NCBI GenBank assembly: GCA_964494065.1
Contig: CAZBRE010000001.1
Location: 14,737-78,736, forward strand
Direction: 5' to 3'
Length of the DNA stretch: 64,000 nt
Source of the DNA: an uncultured Alphaproteobacteria bacterium
Lineage (GTDB): Bacteria; Pseudomonadota; Alphaproteobacteria; JAPULJ01
Shown here piece by piece: positions 52,606 to 63,897 of this stretch (position 1 is its first letter; each line of letters opens with the position of its first letter). Made by a program: the position numbers and the translations under genes. A model generated the notes under the pieces. It did not search any database and was not told where the DNA came from. It saw only the letters and a list, made by a program, of their open reading frames with translations.

Positions 52606-53778
52606 TTACTGTGCGGCCGCTACCGCGTTCTCGTTCGTTCCTTCGGCCACCCTATCGCGGAAATAGGGGATAATCTCTTCGGCGATGGCGGCGATGTTGT
52701 CGCGCGCCATTTCGTTCGGCATGGTTCCGAACTGCGTCTTGGTGAGCGAGGTGTTGAAGCGGGCGAGGTCCTGATATTCGGCGAGCTTCTCGCGCACCGT
52801 GTTCGGGCTGCCGATGATGACGATGCCGCTTTCGATCAGCTGCTCGATCGACTGCGTGCGCCCGGTGATCTTGGCAGCGCGGATGCGCTTGATCGATTCG
52901 ATGCTGGTGTAGCCGGGCGGCAGCAAAAATTCGGTCGGCATCTTCAAAAGCGCGTTCACCAACGCCTCCAGATGCGGCCGCGCCTGGGCGACCGCCTTCT
53001 CGTCGGTCTCGGCGATGTAGATCGAATTCGACCAGGCGAGCTGGTCGGGCGAGGCTTGGTAGCCGGCCTGGTCCGCGGCCTCGCGGTACATGTCGAAGAA
53101 GCGCGCCACCGTGGCAATCGGGCTCAAGGTCTGACAGTAGGTGTAGCGCATCTTCGCCGCCCATTTGATCGTGCTCGACGAGCCCTGGCTCGGGATCCAG
53201 ATCGGCGGATGGGGCTTCTGATAGGGCCGCGGCCACGGGTTGACGTAGCGGAAATTGTAGTGCTCGCCCTCGTACTGGAACGGGCCGTCCTCGGTCCAGG
53301 CCCGCAGGATGAGGTCGTGCGCCTCGTCGAAGCGCGCCTGCGAGGTCGAGGGATTGATGCTCATCGCGTGGTATTCGGCGCCGATGCCGCGCACGAAACC
53401 GGCGATGAACCGGCCGCGCGTCAGGTTGTCGAGGATGGCGTATTCCTCGGCGATGGTGATCGGGTTGTTGACCAGCGGCAGCGCCCGGCCGAGCACCGCC
53501 AATTTGCAGTTCTTGAGCCGCCGTGACAGCGCGCCCGCGAGCACGCCCGGGATCGGCATCATTCCGTATGCGGTGGTGTGATGCTCGTTCAGGACCACCC
53601 CGTCGAAGCCCATCTCGTCGGCGTATTCGAGCTGGTCGAGATAGTCGTGGTACAGCTCGGCGCCCTTCTCCGGGTCGTAGTCCTTGTTCGAATAGGTGAG
53701 CCAGGCCGAGCCGTTCTTCTTGATCGCCTCGATGTCTGCATGGGCGTAGGGCATGAGGTGGAAGTTGAAAAACTTCAT
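52606..53778 (-). CDS. LLM-class flavin-dependent oxidoreductase (luciferase-like monooxygenase)
   Basis: 390 aa; 4-nt overlap with the upstream TRAP fused-permease gene, consistent with co-transcription. Confidence 0.85.
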   Translation of the reverse strand: MKFFNFHLMPYAHADIEAIKKNGSAWLTYSNKDYDPEKGAELYHDYLDQLEYADEMGFDGVVLNEHHTTAYGMMPIPGVLAGALSRRLKNCKLAVLGRALPLVNNPITIAEEYAILDNLTRGRFIAGFVRGIGAEYHAMSINPSTSQARFDEAHDLILRAWTEDGPFQYEGEHYNFRYVNPWPRPYQKPHPPIWIPSQGSSSTIKWAAKMRYTYCQTLSPIATVARFFDMYREAADQAGYQASPDQLAWSNSIYIAETDEKAVAQARPHLEALVNALLKMPTEFLLPPGYTSIESIKRIRAAKITGRTQSIEQLIESGIVIIGSPNTVREKLAEYQDLARFNTSLTKTQFGTMPNEMARDNIAAIAEEIIPYFRDRVAEGTNENAVAAAQ

Positions 53779-55778
53779 GGCGTGCTCCCTCCCGTTCGGC
53801 CGCCGGTATCATAGGCCTTTCGCTCCCGGCGCGCGCCCTGAACCTCCCAGGTGACCAGCGCGATCCCCAAGACCAGGCCGACGAGATCGGTCCAGATCGC
53901 CCAGGGCCCGACGTCGCGCGGCACCATCAGCATGATGCCGGATACAATGACGGCGACGCGCATGGGCGGCGCGAGCGGCCGCATCATATAGCCGATGGCG
54001 CCGGTGCAGACGAGCCAGACACCCGCAACCGCGGTCGTAAGCGCGATCGCAAGATCGAGCGGCTTGACGTCCTGCAGCAGCAAGACCGGCGCGAAGACGA
54101 AGAGGAACGGCACGATATAGGCGGTCCAGCCGAAGCGCATCGCGGCGAAGCCGGTGCGCATCGGATCGGACCTCGCGAGGTTGGCGGCGAAGAAGGCGGC
54201 GATCGCGACCGGCGGCGTGATGAAGGACATCATCCCGAAATAGAAGATGAACATATGCGCCGCCAGCTTGTTGACGCCGACCTCGGCGAGCGCAGGGGCG
54301 ATCAGCACGGCGAGCAGGATGTAGACGCTCACCGTCGGCATGCCCATGCCCAACACGATGCACATCACCGCGGCCATCAGCAGCAGCAGGAGCATGTGTC
54401 CCTCGCCGATGCTCACCAATGCCGAGGTCAGCAGGAAGCCGAGCCCCGCGACGTTGAGCACGCCGAGGATGAAGCCGGCGGCCGCAACGATCATGAACAC
54501 GTCGAGCGCGCCGAGGCAGGTCTGGACCAGCGCGTCCCAGACGCCCTTGAAGGTGAGCCGGTTGTCGCCGTAGCCGAGGACGAGCCCCACCGCGATTACC
54601 CCGACACACGCCCAGAAGGCCGCCGTCTCGGGCCGGTAGTTCCAGGCGAACAGCGTGTAGATCAGCACCGCAAAGGGAACGATGAAAGGCCAGCCCCGCA
54701 CGAGAACGTTGCGCAAGCGGGGAATTTTCACTTCCTCGACCCGGGCGATGCCGTGCTTGGCCGCCTCGAGATCGACCATGATGAAGAGTGCTACGTAGTA
54801 GAGGATCGCCGGGATCAACGCTGCCAGCACGATGGTGCCGTAGTCGGTGCCGAGGATGTCGGCCATCAGGAAGGCGACCGCGCCCATCACCGGCGGCATC
54901 AGCTGCCCGCCGGTGGAAGCGACCGCCTCGATCGCGGCGGCGACGTGGGGCCGGTAGCCGGCCTGGCGCATCAGCGGGATCGTCACCACCCCGGTCGCCA
55001 TGATGTTCGAGGCCGCGAGGCCGGAGACGGTGCCGAAGAGGCTCGAGCCGGTCACCGCGATCTTCGCCGAGCCGCCGCGGAAGCGCCCCATTGCCGCCAG
55101 CGAGAAGTCGTTGAACACCTCCGAGCCGCCCGAGCGGAGCAGCAGCTGGCCGAAGAAGACGAAGGCGAAGACGATGGTCGTCGCGACCTTGAGCACGATT
55201 CCGAAGAGGCCGTTGGTATCGAGCGCGAGCGTGGTGACCAGGACCTCGACCCCGACCTCGCGCGCCTGCATCTTGCCGGGCAGGAGATGGCCCAACAGCC
55301 CGAAGGCGATGAAGATGGCCACCACGATCACGAGCGTGTAGCCGACGCTCCGGCGCAGCCCTTCGATACACAGTCCGAAGATGATCGTGCCGACGATGAC
55401 GGTGTCCGGCGGCGTGTCCGTCAGGAAGGTGATCATGTCCGGGTAGACCACGGCGACATACCACCCCGCACCGAAACCCGCGGCCGACGCCAGCGCGTCG
55501 TACCATGGCAGGCGCGTGCGCATGGTGCCGCGCTTGGCCGGAAAATGGAGATAGACGAGACACAGAACCAGGCCGAGGATCGCGGCCATGAACTGCTCGT
55601 TGTAGGGCGTGTAGCCGACGAGCGACTTGATGTCGAACCCCCATTGGGGGATCTCCATCGCCCAGGCGAGCGACAGCAACGTCGTCAGCGCCGCGAGCCC
55701 GGGACGCAGCACACGCACGACCGGCGAAAGCTTAGCCCCCGCCGTCACTTGCGCGGATTCCGTCGCCGTTTCCGTCAC
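53775..55778 (-). CDS. TAXI-type TRAP transporter fused permease (DctQ-DctM fusion)
   Basis: 667 aa, ~18 TM segments. Confidence 0.85.
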   Translation of the reverse strand: MTETATESAQVTAGAKLSPVVRVLRPGLAALTTLLSLAWAMEIPQWGFDIKSLVGYTPYNEQFMAAILGLVLCLVYLHFPAKRGTMRTRLPWYDALASAAGFGAGWYVAVVYPDMITFLTDTPPDTVIVGTIIFGLCIEGLRRSVGYTLVIVVAIFIAFGLLGHLLPGKMQAREVGVEVLVTTLALDTNGLFGIVLKVATTIVFAFVFFGQLLLRSGGSEVFNDFSLAAMGRFRGGSAKIAVTGSSLFGTVSGLAASNIMATGVVTIPLMRQAGYRPHVAAAIEAVASTGGQLMPPVMGAVAFLMADILGTDYGTIVLAALIPAILYYVALFIMVDLEAAKHGIARVEEVKIPRLRNVLVRGWPFIVPFAVLIYTLFAWNYRPETAAFWACVGVIAVGLVLGYGDNRLTFKGVWDALVQTCLGALDVFMIVAAAGFILGVLNVAGLGFLLTSALVSIGEGHMLLLLLMAAVMCIVLGMGMPTVSVYILLAVLIAPALAEVGVNKLAAHMFIFYFGMMSFITPPVAIAAFFAANLARSDPMRTGFAAMRFGWTAYIVPFLFVFAPVLLLQDVKPLDLAIALTTAVAGVWLVCTGAIGYMMRPLAPPMRVAVIVSGIMLMVPRDVGPWAIWTDLVGLVLGIALVTWEVQGARRERKAYDTGGRTGGSTP

Positions 55779-55878: not shown

Positions 55879-56850
55879 CTACTTCTTCGGCCAGATGCCT
55901 ATCTCTTTGTAATATTTGATCGCGCCCGGATGATACTTCAGCACCGAGAACTGCTTCGCCGCCCGCTTGGGGAAGAAGCCGCGGAACATCGGGTGACCCT
56001 TCGCGAGGGTGGCCTTGTTCTCGCCGAACGCCTTCGCGACCTTGTAAGCCACTTCGTCCGACACGTGGGCGCCGGTGACGAGCGCGTTGTCGAAGGCGAG
56101 CATGGCGGTCGGCACCGCGACGCCGGGGATATGCGGCGCCGGCTTGACCGTGATGATGTAGAAGTCCTTGCGGACCGACTTCACCGCGGCCAGCTGCTTC
56201 GGCCCGTTGCCGATGGACAGGAAGCGGATGCCGCCGGTGGCGCTGTCGACCTCGCGGACCTTGGGCGCCAGCGGCGCGATGTAGCCGGCATCGGTCTTGC
56301 CGGCCTTGAAGTCGTCGGCGGCCGTGATCAGGCCGATCGTCGGCACGCCCTTCACGTCGTTCCAGGTGAGCCCGCCGGCGGCGAGCGACGCGCCCATCAG
56401 CGCGATGCTCTGCCGGAACGCCCGCCAGCCGCTCGGCACGCGCTTGCCCTTCAAGTCGGCGATCGACTTGATCGGCGAGTTCTTGCGCACCATGAACGCG
56501 GTTGGAAAGGTAACGGTCTTCGCGATCGCGAGCAGGTTCTTCGCCGGCCGGCCCTTCCAGGCTTCCTCGCCGTTGATCGCCGCGGCCACCTGGGTGACGT
56601 CGTTGAAGGCGAACTCGGCGCGTCCCGAATTGAGCGCCGAGATCACCGCCTCGGTACCGCGCATCGGCACGACGCTGACCCGCATGCCGGCCTTGTCGAT
56701 CAGCATCTTGGAGCCGATCGTGCTGAGCAGATGCAGGATCGCGCCCTGCGGCAGCGAGGCGAAGGTAAGCGTCTTCTCCGCCGAGGCCGGGCTGGCCGCG
56801 AAGCCGGCCAGCAGCGCAACGCCCGCAAGCAATGCCTTTGTCCGTCTCAT
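55879..56850 (-). CDS. TAXI family TRAP transporter solute-binding protein (copy A)
   Basis: Start at Met 56850 (MRRTKALLAGVALLAGFAASPASA signal). Near-identical to copy B. Confidence 0.85.
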   Translation of the reverse strand: MRRTKALLAGVALLAGFAASPASAEKTLTFASLPQGAILHLLSTIGSKMLIDKAGMRVSVVPMRGTEAVISALNSGRAEFAFNDVTQVAAAINGEEAWKGRPAKNLLAIAKTVTFPTAFMVRKNSPIKSIADLKGKRVPSGWRAFRQSIALMGASLAAGGLTWNDVKGVPTIGLITAADDFKAGKTDAGYIAPLAPKVREVDSATGGIRFLSIGNGPKQLAAVKSVRKDFYIITVKPAPHIPGVAVPTAMLAFDNALVTGAHVSDEVAYKVAKAFGENKATLAKGHPMFRGFFPKRAAKQFSVLKYHPGAIKYYKEIGIWPKK

Positions 56851-57030
56851 GGTTCGTCCTCCCTGTAAGCTGCGGGTGATCCCCGCGTTTATCGTTGTCT
56901 CCAGGCCAATGCTACGGGTTTGGGGGCGGTTAGCGCAAGAAAGGCAGGCCGTCACGCGCCAGCCGGGCCGGCGTGCCATTGAATACTGCCGGGCGCCACC
57001 GCGTTTTTTTCTCAGAGGACGAGTCGGACG

Positions 57031-57999
57031 CTACTCCGCCCAGATGCCTTTTTCTTTGTAAAATTTGATCGCGCCCGGGTGATACTTCAGCACCGAGAAC
57101 TGCTTGGACGCCCGCTTGGGGAAGAAGCCGCGGAACATCGGGTGCCCCTTGGCGAGGGTTGCTTTGTTCTCGTAGAACGCCTTTGCGGCCTTGTAGGCGG
57201 TTTCGTTCGATACGTGGCTGCCCGTGACGAGCGCCGTGTCGTAGGCCAGCATGGCGGTCGGCTTGGCAACGCCCGGGATGTGCGGCGCCGGCTTGACCGT
57301 GACGATATAGAAGTCGGGACGAATCGCCTTTACGGCCGCCAGCTGTTTCGGCCCATTGCCGATGCTGAGGAAGCGGATGCCGCCGACCGAGCTGTCGACC
57401 TCGCGGACCTTCGGCGCCAGCGGCGCAATATAGCCGGCGTCGGTCTTGCCGGCCTTGAAGTCGTCGGCGGCCGTGATCAGACCGATCGTCGGTACATGCT
57501 TGACGTCCTTGAGTGTAAGCCCGCTCGCCGCGAGCGACGCCTCCATGAGCACGAGGCCCTGCCGGAAGGCGCGCCAGCCGGTGGGCAGGCGCTTGCCCTT
57601 CAAGTCGGCGATCGTCTTGATCGGTGAGTCCTTCCGCACCATGAAGGCGGTCGGGAAGGTGACGATCTTCGCGATCGCGCGCAGATTCTTGGTCGGCCGG
57701 CCCTTAAAGGCTTCCTGGCCGTTGATCGCCGCGGCGATCTGGGTCACGTCGGAGAACAGAAACTCCGCGCGGCCTGCATTGACCGCCGAGACCACCGCTT
57801 CCGTACCGCGCATGGGCACGACGCTGACCCGCATGCCGGCCTTGTCGATCAGCATCTTCGACGAGATCGTGCTCAGCAGGTGCAGGATCGCGCCCTGCGG
57901 CAGCGAGGCGAATGTAAGCGTCTTTTCCGCCGCTGCCGGTCCTGCCGAAAAGCCGGCCAGTAGCGCCACACCCGCCAGCAATGCCTTTGTCCGTCTCAT
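57031..57999 (-). CDS. TAXI family TRAP transporter solute-binding protein (copy B)
   Basis: 322 aa; ~85-90% identical to copy A by eye, including the flanking non-coding DNA. Confidence 0.85.
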   Translation of the reverse strand: MRRTKALLAGVALLAGFSAGPAAAEKTLTFASLPQGAILHLLSTISSKMLIDKAGMRVSVVPMRGTEAVVSAVNAGRAEFLFSDVTQIAAAINGQEAFKGRPTKNLRAIAKIVTFPTAFMVRKDSPIKTIADLKGKRLPTGWRAFRQGLVLMEASLAASGLTLKDVKHVPTIGLITAADDFKAGKTDAGYIAPLAPKVREVDSSVGGIRFLSIGNGPKQLAAVKAIRPDFYIVTVKPAPHIPGVAKPTAMLAYDTALVTGSHVSNETAYKAAKAFYENKATLAKGHPMFRGFFPKRASKQFSVLKYHPGAIKFYKEKGIWAE

Positions 58000-58233: not shown

Positions 58234-59316
58234 ATGAAATTCGCCCATTTCGCCCATGTCTGGACCAAGCCCGGCATGACGCCGCACGACCGCTACGAGC
58301 AGCTCTGGCGCGAGCTGGAGCTCTGCGACGCGCTCGGCTTCGACTACGGCTTCTGCGTCGAGCACCATTTCACGCCGCATGAAAGCTGGATGTCCGCGCC
58401 CAGCCTCTTCACGGTCGGCGCCGGCGCCAGGACCAAGAATATCCGCCTCGGGCCCATGGGATATGTGGTGCCGCTTTACCACCCGCTGCGCCTCGCCGAG
58501 GAAATCGCGATCATCGACCAGATGCTGGACGGGCGCATGGAGATCGGCTTGGTTCCCGGCATCATGGGCTCCTACTTCGAGCCCTTCGGCCTCGACTACA
58601 CCAAGCGCAAGTCGCCGACGCTCGAATATCCCGACTATCTTCGCGCCGCCTATGGCGACACCCAGCCCTTCTCATTCTCCAGCGAGAGCTTCACCACCAA
58701 GAACGCCCGCCTTTCGGTGATGCCGGTGCAGAAACCCCATCCGCCTCTGTGGATGATGAGCCGCGATCCCGATACCCTCGACTTCCTCGCCGCCAACGGC
58801 ATCAACACCGGCAACTTCCTGGTCTTCCCGCGCGCCGTCGCGGCCCCGCGCTACCGCAAGTACCTGGAAGACTGGAAAACGGCCGGATGGGACCGCAAGC
58901 CCAACATCGCCTACGCCACCACGATCTATGTCGACGAAAGCGACGACAAGGCGCTGGACGTGGCGCTCACCCGCGCCGCCCGCGCCTATGAGGGCATCCT
59001 GCCCGCGCATGGCGAGCCCTTCGAACGGCGTCTGGAGATCTTCCGCGAGCAGTTCGAGGCGCGCGGCGAAGCCCAGGCCGCGGCGGCGCTGACCCGCATC
59101 TTCGATCCCGAGATCATCATCGACGAAGACCTGGTCTTCATCGGCTCGCCACAAACCGTGACAGAGAAGCTGCGCGCGGCCGCCGAGACCGGCGTCTTCA
59201 ACACCTTCATGGGCGAGTTCAATTTCGGCGATCTGCCCGAGGACGATCTGATGCGCTCGATCCGCCTGTTCGGCGAGAAGGTCATCCCCGAGCTCAAGGA
59301 TTTCGAGCCGTTCTAA
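58234..59316 (+). CDS. LLM-class flavin-dependent oxidoreductase (luciferase-like monooxygenase)
   Basis: 360 aa; MKFAHFAHVW..., LLM TIM-barrel pattern. Divergent from the TAXI-TRAP operon. Confidence 0.85.
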   Translation: MKFAHFAHVWTKPGMTPHDRYEQLWRELELCDALGFDYGFCVEHHFTPHESWMSAPSLFTVGAGARTKNIRLGPMGYVVPLYHPLRLAEEIAIIDQMLDGRMEIGLVPGIMGSYFEPFGLDYTKRKSPTLEYPDYLRAAYGDTQPFSFSSESFTTKNARLSVMPVQKPHPPLWMMSRDPDTLDFLAANGINTGNFLVFPRAVAAPRYRKYLEDWKTAGWDRKPNIAYATTIYVDESDDKALDVALTRAARAYEGILPAHGEPFERRLEIFREQFEARGEAQAAAALTRIFDPEIIIDEDLVFIGSPQTVTEKLRAAAETGVFNTFMGEFNFGDLPEDDLMRSIRLFGEKVIPELKDFEPF

Positions 59317-59350: not shown

Positions 59351-59887
59351 CTATAAGCCCTTGGCGCACGCGGCCAGCGCCAACGTCGCCGCCTTTTCGT
59401 AGGCCGTCTGCTCGGGATCGTCCGATACCGCGAACGCGGGCTCTTCGCCGGCCCGCAAGACGAAGCCCGTGCCGCCGGCCTTTGCCGAAATCGATGCAGC
59501 GCCGGCTGCACTCTGGATGCGCGCACGGCCGCGGCGGGTCTTGTCGTGGTCGCCGGCGGTCAGACGTGCCCAAACCACAACGTCCTCGCCGTCGCGACGC
59601 CTGTCGACGATCTCGAAGCGCCAATTTTCGCCGTAGCGCCTGGCAAGCGTCTGGCCGATATCGCTCGCGCGGATATCGATATGCTCGCCGTCTGTCGACC
59701 GTGCCGGAGGGGCAGCGGCGGGCGGTGCGGACATTTCTGCCGGCGCGGAAGGCCGCGGAGGCTCGGCGCGGAGCTCCGGCCGCGCCGCCGGCGCACGCCG
59801 GGTCAGCAGCGCGTCGAACTGCCTGCGGTTGTCATCGAGCATGCGGTCGAAGGGCGAGGACCGCTTGCCGCCCGCATCGGTCGTCAT
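59351..59887 (-). CDS. hypothetical protein (Pro/Ala-rich N-terminal half, conserved C-terminal ~90 aa)
   Basis: 178-aa ORF, 7 nt downstream of the isochorismatase-like gene on the same strand. No family recognised. Confidence 0.35.
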   Translation of the reverse strand: MTTDAGGKRSSPFDRMLDDNRRQFDALLTRRAPAARPELRAEPPRPSAPAEMSAPPAAAPPARSTDGEHIDIRASDIGQTLARRYGENWRFEIVDRRRDGEDVVVWARLTAGDHDKTRRGRARIQSAAGAASISAKAGGTGFVLRAGEEPAFAVSDDPEQTAYEKAATLALAACAKGL

Positions 59888-59894
59888 CGCTGGC

Positions 59895-60611
59895 TCATCG
59901 CGCGCTCGCCGGCTCGTTCCACCAGCGCTGGAAGTCGTCGCGCGCTTCGCCGGCCATGCCGCCGATGGTGGAGAGGCCGGTCAGGTAGTCGAGCACCTCG
60001 CGGCTCTCCACCACGTCGCCGTATTTGGCCTCGATGTCGAAGAGGTTGGCCTCGTGGGTGCCTTCCGCGCGGTCCCCTACCCCGTCGCGCACGACGATGC
60101 AGTGATAGCCGCTCTGCATGGTGTCGATGGCCGAGGATCGGATGCAGCCGCTCGTGGTGCAGCCGGTCATCACCACCGTGTCGACGCCGAGGCTCCGGAG
60201 ATAAGCGTCGAGGTCGGTGCCGAAGAAGGCGCTGGCGAACTTCTTCTCCACCACGCGCTCGCCCGGCGCCGGGGCGATGCGTTCGTCGACCTCCACCATC
60301 GAGGAACCACGCACCAGGATCGAGAGCGAGGGCACCTTTTTGATGAACATGCCGGCGTCGCGGAGGTCCGCCTCGTAGACGACGGTCGTGTAGACGACCG
60401 GCAGGTGGCTGCCGCGGAAGGCCTGGATGAGACGGTCGGTCACCGCGAGCTGGGGAGAGAAGTCGCCGCCCAACGGCGTCGAGGCGTCGGTGAAACCGTT
60501 GATGAAGTCGACGATGAGCAGCGCCGGATGCTTGCCGAAGCCCATGCGGTTGGCGAAGCCCTTCCGGCGGTAGGCATCGTGGGTATGGCCGTTGTCCATG
60601 GCACGCTCCAT
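59895..60611 (-). CDS. isochorismatase-family cysteine hydrolase (N-carbamoylsarcosine amidase/CSHase-like)
   Basis: [11 protein letters not shown]...(D), K (FIKK), and the catalytic Cys in [15 protein letters not shown]. Start at M7 (60611); alternatives at 60629 or 60599. Confidence 0.75.
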
Positions 60612-60617
60612 CGTGGG

Positions 60618-60634
60618 ATCGTTTCGCAAACGAT
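60618..60634. promoter_or_regulatory. inverted repeat ATCGTTT-cgc-AAACGAT at the 5' end of the isochorismatase-like gene, in the divergent promoter region
   Basis: Seen in sequence; perfect 7-3-7 arms. Confidence 0.3.
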
Positions 60635-60838
60635 AGCCGCTCGCCGAAGCCCGCGCAAACGCGCGTCACGCATACCATCTGGAGGGATTGCGTCCGCCGG
60701 GAAAACATGGACACTCATTTGTCACGTGATGGACTTCGCGTCCCGGCGGCACGCCTTTGCGGACATCGACGATCGTTGCCGAATGGCACTGATCCGGCGC
60801 GCCGGGACCTGACGGCGGAATTTGCTGGAGAGACCGCA

Positions 60839-61924
60839 ATGAACGACGACCACGATCCACGCAGATACGGCGGGCGCAGCGCCCGCGCCGAGATCGGCCC
60901 GCGCTATCAGCCGCGTTCGCTGCTCGATTCGCGTGGCGGCGGTAGCGGCCACAGCGGCGCCTATCTGCCGACCGGCCGGCCGCCGACCCAGGCAAAAGCC
61001 AGCGGCGGCGGCAAGAAGGACATCCTCTGCGCCTTCGGCATCGACGTCGACGCGGTGGCGGGCTGGCTCGGCTCCTACGGCGGCGAGGACTCGCCCTGCG
61101 ACATCTCGCGCGGCATCTTCTCCGGCGAGATCGGCGCGCCGCGTCTGGTCAAGCTCTTCGACCGCTTCGGCATCAAGACGACCTGGTTCATCCCCGGCCA
61201 CTCGATCGAGACCTTCCCCGACCAGATGAAGCTGGTCGTCGATGCGGGTCACGAGATCGGCATGCACGGCTACTCCCACGAGAACCCCATCGCCATGACG
61301 CCCGAGCAGGAAGAGGCGGTGATGGACAAGTGCATCGACCTCATCGAGCGCCTCTCCGGGCGGCGGCCGACCGGCTATGTGGCGCCGTGGTGGGAGTTCA
61401 GCCCGGTGACCAACGAGCTGCTGCTCAAGAAGGGTATCAAGTACGACCACAGCCTGATGAACAACGACTTTCACCCCTTCTATGTGCGGGTGGGCGACAG
61501 CTGGACGAAGATCGACTATTCGAAACGCGCCGAAGACTGGATGAAGCCGCTGGTGCGCGGCCAGGAGACCGACCTGATCGATATCCCCGGCAGCTGGTAC
61601 TTGGACGACCTGCCGCCGATGATGTTCATCAAGGGGGCGCCGAACAGCTTCGGCTGGGTCAGCCCGCAACATGTCGAGCGGCTCTGGTGCGACCAGTTCG
61701 ATTGGGTCTACCGCGAATACGACTACGCGACCTTCTGCATGACGATCCATCCCGACGTCTCGGGCCGGCCGCAGGTGCTGCTGATGCTCGAACGCGTCTT
61801 CGAGCATATCAGCCGGCATACGGGCGTGCGCTTCGTCACCTTCGATCAGATCGCCGACGACTTCCGCGAGCGCTTCCCGCGCGAAGGCGCGGCGCGGCCG
61901 GAAACCGTCTATACGAGCGTTTAG
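60839..61924 (+). CDS. polysaccharide deacetylase family protein (NodB-homology; PuuE-allantoinase-like divalent-metal hydrolase)
   Basis: Start at Met 60839 ([12 protein letters not shown]...). Motifs DVDAVAG, IETFPDQ, HGYSHE typical of the carbohydrate esterase 4/PuuE family. Confidence 0.7.
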
Positions 61925-61956
61925 GCGGAAGGGACCGAAAGGAGGTCCGTAAAACG

Positions 61957-62280
61957 ATGTGCAGCCTTTGCGGGGTTCTGGGCGGGCGCGGCCACTGGAC
62001 CGAGAGCGCCAGCACGCCCGAGGCTTTCGCCAGCCGGCTCGATGCGACCACCCGCCGCCGCGAGCGCCAGGAGCGAACGGCGATCGCCAACCGCATCCTC
62101 ACCCATTACGGGCTCACCCTGAAGGACTGGGGCGGCTCGTCCTACATCCTCTCGACCAAGACCGGACGGACGGTGATCGTCGACAATCTGAGTGAGATCT
62201 GGATCGCCGCCGAAGCGCTGACACAGGGCGAATGCGATCCACTCGACGACGGCCTGCTGGCCGATTTGAGGGCGAGCTGA
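61957..62280 (+). CDS. small hypothetical protein with N-terminal MCSLCG motif
   Basis: 107 aa. Strong RBS AAGGAGG 12 nt upstream of ATG 61957; 21 nt upstream of the COG0523 gene. Not in the track as a separate ORF because it is the tail of a longer stop-free frame. Confidence 0.5.
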   Translation: MCSLCGVLGGRGHWTESASTPEAFASRLDATTRRRERQERTAIANRILTHYGLTLKDWGGSSYILSTKTGRTVIVDNLSEIWIAAEALTQGECDPLDDGLLADLRAS

Positions 62281-62301
62281 GGGCCGACTAAGGGCAAGAG
62301 C

Positions 62302-63351
62302 GTGACACAGTACGAGACCCTCATCCCGATTAACGTGATTACCGGCTTTCTGGGCTCGGGCAAGACGACGGTGCTGGCGCAGCTCCTGCGCGCGCCCGAT
62401 CTCAGTGACACGGCCGTGCTGATCAACGAGTTCGGCGAGGTCGGGCTCGACCACCAATTGATCGAGCATGCGGAGGAGAGCACCCTGCTGCTCGAGAACG
62501 GCTGCCTCTGCTGCGCCATCCGCGGCGACCTCAAGGACGCGCTGCGCACCCTCTTCTCGCGCTGCGCGCGGGGCGAGATCCCGCAATTCAAGCGCGTCGT
62601 GATCGAGACCTCGGGGCTCGCCGATCCGGTGCCGATCGCCTACACGATCATGGCCGAGCCGGTGCTCCAGTACCATTTCCGACTCGGCAATATCGTCACG
62701 GTGGTCGATGCGGTGACCGGGGCGGACGCACTCGCGCGCTATCCCGAATCGGAAAAGCAGGCGGCGATCGCCGACCGCATCGTGCTCAGCAAGACGGATC
62801 TTTGCGAACCCGGCGACGAGGCCACGCTGCGCGCAAAGCTGGCCGAGATCAACAGCGCCGCCCCCATCATCGATGCCGTGCGCGATGGGCTCGACGCGGA
62901 CGCGCTGCTCACCCACGACATCTATACGCCGGAGGGCAAGCGTGCGGCGATCGATGCCTGGCTCGGCGAACAGGACGGCGGTCACGAAGATGCGCATGCG
63001 GCGCATACGGCCGATGTGTCGTCCTTCTGCCTGTGGTTCGACGAAGCTCTCGATTGGACGGCCTTCGGCATCTGGATGACGATGCTACTGAACCGCCACG
63101 GCGACCGTGTCCTGCGTATCAAGGGCATGCTGAACGTCGAAGGCGTCGCCGACCCGGTGCTGATCAACGGGGTGCAGCATGTCGTGCATCCGCCGACGCA
63201 TCTGGCCGGCTGGCCCGATACGGACCGCCGCTCGCGCATCGTCTTCATCACGCGCGGACTCTCGCGGGCGCGCATCGAAGCATCGCTCGCGGCCTTCAAC
63301 GCGCTGGCAAATCCGGCGCCGAGCGGGCGCGCGGGCGTGGCGGCCGAGTAA
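62302..63351 (+). CDS. COG0523-family GTPase (CobW/Nha3/ZigA-like metallochaperone)
   Basis: P-loop GFLGSGKTT, the CxCC metal-binding motif (GCLCCAIRGD), and a His-rich stretch (GGHEDAHAAH). Confidence 0.85.
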   Translation: MTQYETLIPINVITGFLGSGKTTVLAQLLRAPDLSDTAVLINEFGEVGLDHQLIEHAEESTLLLENGCLCCAIRGDLKDALRTLFSRCARGEIPQFKRVVIETSGLADPVPIAYTIMAEPVLQYHFRLGNIVTVVDAVTGADALARYPESEKQAAIADRIVLSKTDLCEPGDEATLRAKLAEINSAAPIIDAVRDGLDADALLTHDIYTPEGKRAAIDAWLGEQDGGHEDAHAAHTADVSSFCLWFDEALDWTAFGIWMTMLLNRHGDRVLRIKGMLNVEGVADPVLINGVQHVVHPPTHLAGWPDTDRRSRIVFITRGLSRARIEASLAAFNALANPAPSGRAGVAAE

Positions 63352-63366
63352 GACCGGAAGCTGGAT

Positions 63367-63897
63367 CTAACGGGAGGAGCGGCGCGAGCTGTCGACGCTT
63401 TGCGGCGCCCGGCGCGGCCGCCAGCCGATGCGGAAGGACCGTACCATGCGGTGCAGCAGGTAAAAGCCGATCGCCAAAATCACAAGCAGAACAATGGCTA
63501 GGAGCTTCCGGCCAAAGCTCGCATCGATGATCGAGCCGGTTCTGATGAGATGCGCGCCCAGCATCTCGATCACCTGAAGTATTCCACCCGCGCATAATAT
63601 GAGCGCCACCAGGATCGCGATCTGCACGGTGTCGTAGACGAGCGCCTCGGCATCGAGCTCCTTCACGTCGCGAAAGACGTGCTGGCGATAGGACTGCCAA
63701 TGGGCGATCGCGTAAGCGACGACGCCGACGAACGCGGCGAACCAGAAAATGATTGTCGAGGCAGCGAGTCCGCGAATGCTCTCGCTGACCAGCTTCTCGA
63801 ACGGCTGATAGAAATAGAGGAAGATCAGCAAGATGATTATGCCGACCAGCACCATTCCGTATCTGTAGGGGCGCGAGCCGCCGCCGTCCTGGGCCAT
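63367..63897 (-). CDS. hypothetical membrane protein (4 predicted TM helices)
   Basis: Start at internal Met 63897 (MAQDGGGSRPYRYGMVLVGIIILLIFLYF...). Confidence 0.45.
   Translation of the reverse strand: MAQDGGGSRPYRYGMVLVGIIILLIFLYFYQPFEKLVSESIRGLAASTIIFWFAAFVGVVAYAIAHWQSYRQHVFRDVKELDAEALVYDTVQIAILVALILCAGGILQVIEMLGAHLIRTGSIIDASFGRKLLAIVLLVILAIGFYLLHRMVRSFRIGWRPRRAPQSVDSSRRSSR

Follow-up and report, generated by a model that had tools for sequence, protein, structure and literature searches.

Positions 59351 to 63351 of the window, a 64,000-nucleotide stretch of DNA from an uncultured alphaproteobacterium, hold five genes. Three of them, on the plus strand, encode a CE4-fold hydrolase, a 107-residue small protein that starts MCSLCG, and a G3E GTPase of the COG0523 group. 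It is nearly certain that this locus is one copy of a widespread hydrolase/small protein/COG0523 module. The small protein resembles HP0311 of Helicobacter pylori and is the only part of the module that looks new; it has no annotation and accompanies this COG0523 subgroup almost without exception. We suggest that the small protein and the GTPase load a metal ion into the hydrolase, and that the hydrolase opens a cyclic imide or related ring for a divergently encoded amidase to finish. Taken as a whole, we rate this explanation as somewhat better than an even proposition.

All five genes are real and their coordinates were confirmed; the gene starts match the gene calls on public contigs that encode an identical small protein. 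The hydrolase gene (361 aa) runs from 60839 to 61924. It lies in a longer open reading frame (ORF, 60707 to 61924), and both the alignment and a public gene call put the true start at ATG 60839. The small ORF follows at 61957 to 62280. The earlier note on this DNA had described it as driven by a strong ribosome-binding site, and direct reading located that site, AGGAGG, at 61940 to 61945, 16 nt past the hydrolase stop codon (61922 to 61924) and 11 nt before ATG 61957. The GTPase gene (349 aa, GTG start) occupies 62302 to 63351. The gaps between the three genes are 32 nt and 21 nt, and the GTPase gene starts about 380 bp 3' of the hydrolase stop codon in the same operon.

The query for our genome scan was an alignment of the hydrolase alone, and each species was represented by a single genome. 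Relatives were found in at least 575 species, and the best 80 loci, with hydrolases 68 to 83% identical, were kept. Because these loci were anchored on the hydrolase alone, they give a test of the trio that is unbiased toward the small ORF. By tblastn, the small ORF was present in 75 of the 80 loci and COG0523 in 73. Of the five loci lacking the small ORF, two (L043 and L070) are on contigs that end too early, and three (L015, L036, and L060) are real absences. The loci span Alpha-, Beta-, and Gammaproteobacteria (Pseudomonas, Halomonas, Pantoea, and Mangrovibacter) and Actinomycetota. The small ORF ends 3 to 181 bp 5' of the COG0523 gene in 75 of 77 pairs. The pair itself moves relative to the hydrolase: it is directly 3' of it in most Alphaproteobacteria, about 3 kb downstream in Pseudomonas, and divergent in Actinomycetota. 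The hydrolase gene is 2.8 to 6.4 kb away from the small ORF in Pseudomonas, Halomonas, Enterobacterales, and H. pylori, and there, too, COG0523 is the neighbor of the small ORF. The arrangement of the trio is far beyond chance. The earlier note had pointed to conservation of this neighborhood as a check of its proposal and to loss of the small ORF from orthologous loci as evidence against it; the trio recurred, and among the loci with enough sequence to judge, the small ORF was missing from only three.

The trio also extends to H. pylori. A 128-aa ORF starting MCVLCGELIRSFHW lies near HP0310, and its last base is the first base of the COG0523 start codon. Its product is 35% identical to the window small protein (E = 1e-24). 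Therefore, the H. pylori trio is HP0310/HP0311/HP0312. HP0310 is 71% identical to the window hydrolase and has identical metal and catalytic residues, HP0311 shares the MCxLCG...HW start, and HP0312 is the COG0523 protein. However, the H. pylori locus differs in its amidase, which is of the CN_hydrolase family, and in HP0310 itself, which has 293 aa, lacks the 58-residue N-terminal extension of the window enzyme, and is annotated as a peptidoglycan deacetylase. In one H. pylori strain (L087, 5936 to 7764), HP0310 is split from HP0311 and HP0312 by four genes on the minus strand, among which are N6_N4 methyltransferase genes belonging to a restriction-modification system. The latter two remain adjacent despite the insertion.

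The small ORF is a genuine gene, judging from its homologues. There are 175 close ones, and an exhaustive profile search gave 553 cluster representatives (clustered at 50% identity), of which 342 had E ≤ 1e-10. Almost all of the representatives are stand-alone proteins of 95 to 125 aa with Met-Cys as residues 1 and 2, and position 1 of the profile falls on residue 1. We aligned 80 sequences, comprising the window protein and those of 79 loci. The consensus is M-C-x-[LVI]-C-G, with an H-W pair 6 to 7 residues on, scattered Arg, Asn, Gly, and Trp residues, and a C-terminal DPL(D). Residues C2, C5, and H13 are conserved and make up a Cys-x2-Cys-x(7-8)-His motif. An AlphaFold model, with a mean predicted local distance difference test score (pLDDT) of 77.6, contains a confident α-β-β-β-α-α domain at residues 33 to 107. 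The Cys/Cys/His tail is of low confidence in that model, and the tail is probably flexible. No Pfam, NCBIfam, or PHROG model matched the protein, permissive Pfam and PHROG scans gave nothing usable, and no structural match was found. Neither sequence nor fold similarity to HypA or UreE was found, and our literature search returned no mention of the protein as a family.

Two other interpretations of the small protein were set aside. We rejected a precursor of a ribosomally synthesized and post-translationally modified peptide, because all 107 residues are conserved and the C-terminal domain is folded. The family consensus is C-[SGAV]-L-C-G, and so MCSLCG probably resembles the CSLCSC motif of nitrile hydratase by coincidence.

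The GTPase contains a cobW domain (PF02492; 150.7 bits, E = 4e-44) and a CobW_C domain (PF07683; 81.4 bits, E = 4e-23). The Walker A motif GFLGSGKT is at residues 15 to 22 (62344 to 62367), and CLCC is at residues 68 to 71 (62503 to 62514). Both the Walker A and the CxCC motifs are present in all 76 GTPase orthologues, and His235 of the linker is conserved in at least 95%. The COG0523 assignment and the CxCC motif thus agree with the earlier note, and its His-rich motif corresponds to the linker GGHEDAHAAHTAD, which is only modestly His-rich (four His). The closest solved relative is YjiA (1nij, E = 1e-44). The protein scored below the NCBIfam cutoffs for PRK11537 (YjiA-like; 193.5 against 361), CobW (136.8 against 332.1), and ZigA (109.2 against 600); none of the proteins of the locus reached an NCBIfam equivalog cutoff.

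The linkage of COG0523 to this hydrolase is not new, because Haas et al. recorded it as COG0523 subgroup 7, defined by co-localization with cyclic imide hydrolase (CIH) (2009, BMC Genomics 10:470, PMC2770081, Additional file 3). The other neighbors listed for subgroup 7 are a GatA-like amidase, PotABCD, and FabG, with examples from P. fluorescens, P. syringae, R. leguminosarum, and others. Like those clusters, the window has its COG0523 gene co-localized with a CIH-family gene. The Pseudomonas and Rhizobium sister loci carry the subgroup 7 neighbors, namely an amidase-signature amidase, a PotD-like protein with an ABC transporter, and a FabG-like short-chain dehydrogenase/reductase (SDR), and their COG0523 proteins are 46 to 53% identical to that of the window. 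Unlike the subgroup 7 description, the window has no GatA-like amidase, PotABCD, or FabG. Instead, the cluster has an isochorismatase-type amidase, a membrane protein, hydantoinase A, and upstream TRAP/TAXI genes. The MCxLCG protein is not mentioned in the subgroup 7 description, which gives the linkage only. Our literature search found no papers pairing COG0523 with "cyclic imide," no relevant ones for COG0523 and "polysaccharide deacetylase," and no experiment on a subgroup 7 COG0523 protein.

The hydrolase matched Polysacc_deac_1 (PF01522; 64.6 bits, cutoff 23.1, E = 1e-17). Among solved structures, the dominant match was HP0310 of H. pylori, known as HpPgdA (PDB 3qbu and 4ly4; E = 6e-154), and the 71% identity extends across 290 ungapped residues. 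In the crystal structure, HpPgdA is a homotetramer whose metal is bound by Asp14, His86, and His90 (Shaik et al. 2011, PMC3084791). These ligands correspond to D71, H143, and H147 of the window protein, and the catalytic Asp12 and His247 correspond to D69 and H304. Access to the HpPgdA site is blocked by Tyr23, Trp127, Trp196, and Leu201, and there is no polysaccharide groove (Shaik et al.). The window counterparts of these four residues are Y80, W184, W253, and L258. All nine positions are invariant in the hydrolase alignment. The same study also used HP0312 as an anchor gene in its context analysis.

The hydrolase is a member of the HpPgdA-like/cyclic imide hydrolase family, and imide hydrolysis (EC 3.5.2.16) is predicted from its relatives. 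In some database sources, the 293-aa enterobacterial orthologues carry the name cyclic imide hydrolase. The cyclic imidase HxnM of Aspergillus nidulans, whose activity is known through genetics and metabolomics, matches CE4_HpPgdA_like in CDD (cd10938) and is more than 60% identical to the CIH of Pseudomonas putida YZ-26. The latter reportedly binds zinc. Both enzymes thus fall in the same family as the window hydrolase, but no COG0523 or small-protein partner has been described for either.

The earlier note had called the hydrolase a NodB/PuuE-type metal-dependent deacetylase or amidohydrolase. The CE4/NodB fold held up and a metal site is present, but the PuuE type did not hold. PuuE allantoinase and the imidase BpIH (PDB 3cl6 and 3s6o) are tetrameric cyclic amide hydrolases of the CE4 fold and the closest structural relatives of HpPgdA. 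However, they have a metal-independent Glu-His-Trp triad, whereas the window hydrolase keeps Asp-His-His. The hydrolase is therefore not PuuE-type, and it scored 69.7 bits against the 424.6-bit cutoff of the PuuE allantoinase model (NCBIfam TIGR03212).

The hydrolase is strikingly conserved. From Actinomycetota to three proteobacterial classes its identity is 68 to 83%, with 71% to the H. pylori enzyme, and over the same span the adjacent small protein and COG0523 fall to 30 to 50%. This pattern suggests that the enzyme is under very strong constraint or that its gene has repeatedly been transferred horizontally. Residues 1 to 58 (60839 to 61012) are a poorly conserved extension with no counterpart in the 293-aa forms of H. 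pylori, Pseudomonas, and Enterobacterales. Alphaproteobacterial hydrolases have such a hydrophilic N-terminal extension of about 30 to 85 residues, with a recurring RYxPRxL motif.

We propose that the small protein and the GTPase act as a pair, as HypA does with HypB or UreE with UreG. A metal ion would be held between the Cys/Cys/His tail of the small protein and the CxCC site of the GTPase, and GTP hydrolysis would drive the ion into the occluded Asp-His-His site of the hydrolase. The neighborhood evidence supports the earlier note, which had suggested a dedicated metallocentre maturation system for this enzyme with the small protein in the place of a metal-transfer adaptor. Metal delivery is probable from the gene linkage and by analogy with HypB-HypA, UreG-UreE, and the COG0523 nitrile hydratase activator Nha3/P47K, a G3E GTPase whose gene lies beside that of its client. 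HypA has its metal-binding motif at the extreme N terminus, where the small protein has its putative one. To our knowledge, no dedicated partner protein has been described for COG0523 GTPases.

Alternatively, the small protein could be an adaptor or regulator of the GTPase, as an activating, exchange, or client-docking factor, with the Cys/His motif serving as a structural zinc site. In favor of this, the tie of the small gene to COG0523 is closer than its tie to the hydrolase gene, and the C-terminal domain is well folded and conserved. In addition, in two of the representatives, P0361 and P0347, the small protein is joined with a CobW_C-like segment or with a piece from the middle of COG0523. 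They may be genuine fusions that support physical contact, or they may be assembly or deletion artifacts, and we give them little weight. However, the invariant Cys-x2-Cys...His motif is on a predicted-flexible extreme N terminus, a placement typical of transfer sites and not of structural ones, and we regard a purely regulatory role as unlikely.

Less probable again is a role for the small protein as a subunit of the hydrolase or as a modulator of its activity, with COG0523 acting independently. The position of the small ORF directly 3' of the hydrolase gene, in the window and in most alphaproteobacterial loci, would suit a subunit. However, where the hydrolase gene lies kilobases away, as in Pseudomonas, Halomonas, Enterobacterales, and H. 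pylori, it is COG0523 that the small ORF accompanies, and HpPgdA crystallized as a homotetramer without the small protein.

We also considered whether the hydrolase truly deacetylates peptidoglycan or a polysaccharide, so that the COG0523 pair would supply zinc to a cell-wall enzyme. The PF01522 match, cited genetic and crude-extract data for H. pylori PgdA, and one study that reported esterase activity of HP0310 on acetyl-xylan and chitin favor this. Yet the pocket is closed and conserved, the N terminus of the window hydrolase reads as hydrophilic, with neither a hydrophobic segment nor a signal peptide, and HpPgdA also lacks a signal peptide (Shaik et al.). Purified HpPgdA was inactive on GlcNAc and polysaccharide substrates, acetyl-putrescine, and allantoin, and the authors concluded that its substrate is a small molecule (Shaik et al.). 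Furthermore, the fungal orthologue-level relative HxnM is a proven cyclic imidase, and the neighboring genes encode amidases, SDRs, solute transporters, and hydantoinases, not cell-wall functions. A cell-wall role for the hydrolase is thus highly improbable.

In the reading that we prefer, the metal-loaded hydrolase would work in the cytoplasm and open the ring of a small cyclic imide, or of a related cyclic amide, to give a half-amide, and the divergently encoded isochorismatase-type amidase would hydrolyze the half-amide to an acid and ammonia. The amidase gene (234 aa) occupies 59895 to 60599 on the minus strand. ATG 60599 is its likely start, in agreement with the gene call on an identical public contig (L088); in the ORF list, the frame reaches TTG 60629. 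The product has an isochorismatase domain (PF00857; E = 2e-38, 132.6 bits). It is 50% identical over 201 aa to an N-carbamoylsarcosine amidohydrolase (PDB 26st_A, E = 1.6e-64) and 40% identical to 4l07_A, which we take to be maleamate amidase. Cys162 aligns with the Cys-to-Ala site of 4l08_B, and Asp41 and Lys129/130 are present. With the domain and the Asp-Lys-Cys triad residues in place, the isochorismatase-like cysteine hydrolase of the earlier note holds. The protein fell below the cutoff of all NCBIfam equivalogs (BiuH and RutB), and we predict an amidase of the N-carbamoylsarcosine amidase/maleamate amidase type.

To count neighbors, all ORFs of the loci were clustered, and the cluster representatives were scanned. 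The recurrent neighbors were a PotD-like binding protein (36 loci), an SDR (35), an amidase-signature amidase (30), a GntR regulator (25), a major facilitator superfamily transporter (21), a conserved membrane protein (20), hydantoinase A and B (HydA and HydB; 19 and 14), and the isochorismatase (13). Rarer amidase neighbors were Amidohydro_2 in three loci and CN_hydrolase in two; Amidohydro_2 is the type in marine loci, and in H. pylori a CN_hydrolase gene is directly 5' of HP0310. The hydrolase is constant, and four unrelated amidase families alternate beside it; the transporters beside the module also differ among loci. Such alternation of amidases is what one would expect if ring opening by the hydrolase yields a half-amide that any amidase can finish. 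The earlier note's guess of ring-opening amidohydrolase chemistry fits both the family of the hydrolase and this replacement of the amidase. In the fungus, the imidase HxnM likewise opens the ring before the amidase HxnN acts, and an SDR, HxnW, belongs to the same system. The bacterial modules similarly pair an imidase with an amidase, often beside an SDR. However, the window amidase is isochorismatase-type rather than amidase-signature, and the window cluster has no SDR.

The constancy of the hydrolase, beside amidases and transporters that vary, supports taking it as the client of the GTPase pair. The chance that the client is instead another enzyme of the island, HydA/HydB or an amidase, is slimmer still than that of a cell-wall role: HydA/HydB accompany the module in 14 to 19 loci, including that of the window organism, but they and each amidase type are absent from most loci, and the defined mononuclear metal site belongs to the hydrolase. 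Least probable of all is that COG0523 and the small protein serve general zinc homeostasis next to the hydrolase by accident, because, although many COG0523 proteins belong to Zur regulons, the hydrolase linkage holds in 73 to 75 of 80 loci across several phyla, no zinc-uptake genes are among the recurrent neighbors, and no match to a Zur-box-like palindrome (AATGTTATAACATT, ≤3 mismatches) was found anywhere in the window. A zinc-homeostasis neighborhood was what the earlier note had said would count against its proposal; the orthologues adjoin the hydrolase, not zinc-uptake genes.

Several points weigh against the explanation that we favor. The hydrolase occurs without the pair in L015, L036, and L060, and HxnM functions where we know of no linked small ORF. 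The imidase BpIH, of the PuuE branch, is metal-independent, and the esterase report on HP0310 conflicts with a strictly small-molecule role. No experiment ties a subgroup 7 COG0523 protein or the small protein to the metal content of the hydrolase. HpPgdA made alone in E. coli already contained a metal ion (Shaik et al.), which means that some metal can bind even without a chaperone. Moreover, a hydantoin- or creatinine-type route is also possible, because N-carbamoylsarcosine amidase is the best solved relative of the window amidase and HydA/HydB are nearby. The creatinine/N-methylhydantoin pathway uses HyuA/HyuB and N-carbamoylsarcosine amidase, and the window organism and 14 to 19 sister loci carry HydA/HydB. 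However, that pathway has no CE4 hydrolase, and most trio loci lack both HydA/HydB and the isochorismatase.

We put forward more tentatively, at somewhat less than an even chance, that the HP0311-like protein is an obligate partner of subgroup 7 COG0523 and that H. pylori "PgdA" is a chaperone-matured cyclic imide or amide hydrolase. If so, the inactivity of HpPgdA in vitro could reflect wrong or missing metallation after expression without HP0311 and HP0312. The result is relevant to the question of what H. pylori PgdA, reported to be an immune-evasion factor, acts on. Known clients are few among COG0523 GTPases. The module offers a client fixed by linkage in hundreds of species, a solved client structure in HpPgdA, and an unnoticed Cys/Cys/His partner, and together these make the COG0523 transfer mechanism directly testable. 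Should the HP0311-like protein prove to be an obligate partner, no earlier COG0523 system known to us would combine a small metallochaperone of its own with a client that is hard-wired and structurally solved. The analysis also gives a name to a previously unannotated protein family of 553 representative clusters. The proposed catabolic chemistry, in which an amidase acts after ring opening, is ordinary.

Beyond the GTPase gene, a multi-pass membrane protein (176 aa as called) is encoded at 63367 to 63897 on the minus strand, and its ORF could extend to 63987. Homologues with 48 to 65% identity occur in 20 sister loci of Alpha-, Beta-, and Gammaproteobacteria (for example, L001, 9435 to 9962). 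The gene is mostly on the opposite strand between COG0523 and hydantoinase A, and in a few loci it is 4 to 6.6 kb from the hydrolase gene. Pfam gave only a sub-threshold match (CopD, E = 0.003), and permissive Pfam and PHROG scans gave nothing usable. On a contig of the same organism that encodes an identical small protein (L089, 3722 to 4333), hydantoinase A comes next after the membrane gene, and so the cluster runs past the end of the window. That hydantoinase A is 75% identical to the L001 copy; among NCBIfam models it matched the caprolactamase alpha subunit best, with a score below the cutoff. HydA, joined in sister loci by HydB, fits a cyclic-amide catabolic island.

The amidase gene and the hydrolase operon diverge from an intergenic region at 60600 to 60838, which was read directly and aligned with those of 12 sister loci; conservation was only clade specific, with no operator common to all. 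Upstream of the locus are two luciferase-like flavin monooxygenase genes, at 52609 to 53778 (minus strand) and 58234 to 59316 (plus strand). The interval between the two encodes a fused TRAP DctM permease (53775 to 55778) and tandem paralogous TAXI/NMT1_3 binding proteins (55879 to 56979 and 57031 to 57999). These genes are not conserved in sister loci, and they could serve uptake and oxidation of the same substrate. The fifth gene of the locus, at 59351 to 59887 on the minus strand, lies 3' of the isochorismatase gene and encodes a hypothetical protein of 178 aa with no Pfam, NCBIfam, or PHROG match; permissive Pfam and PHROG scans gave nothing usable. Of the 13 sister loci with the isochorismatase gene, 10 have a homologue of 30 to 35% identity at this position, and the protein has a Pro/Ala-rich middle and a conserved C-terminal half.

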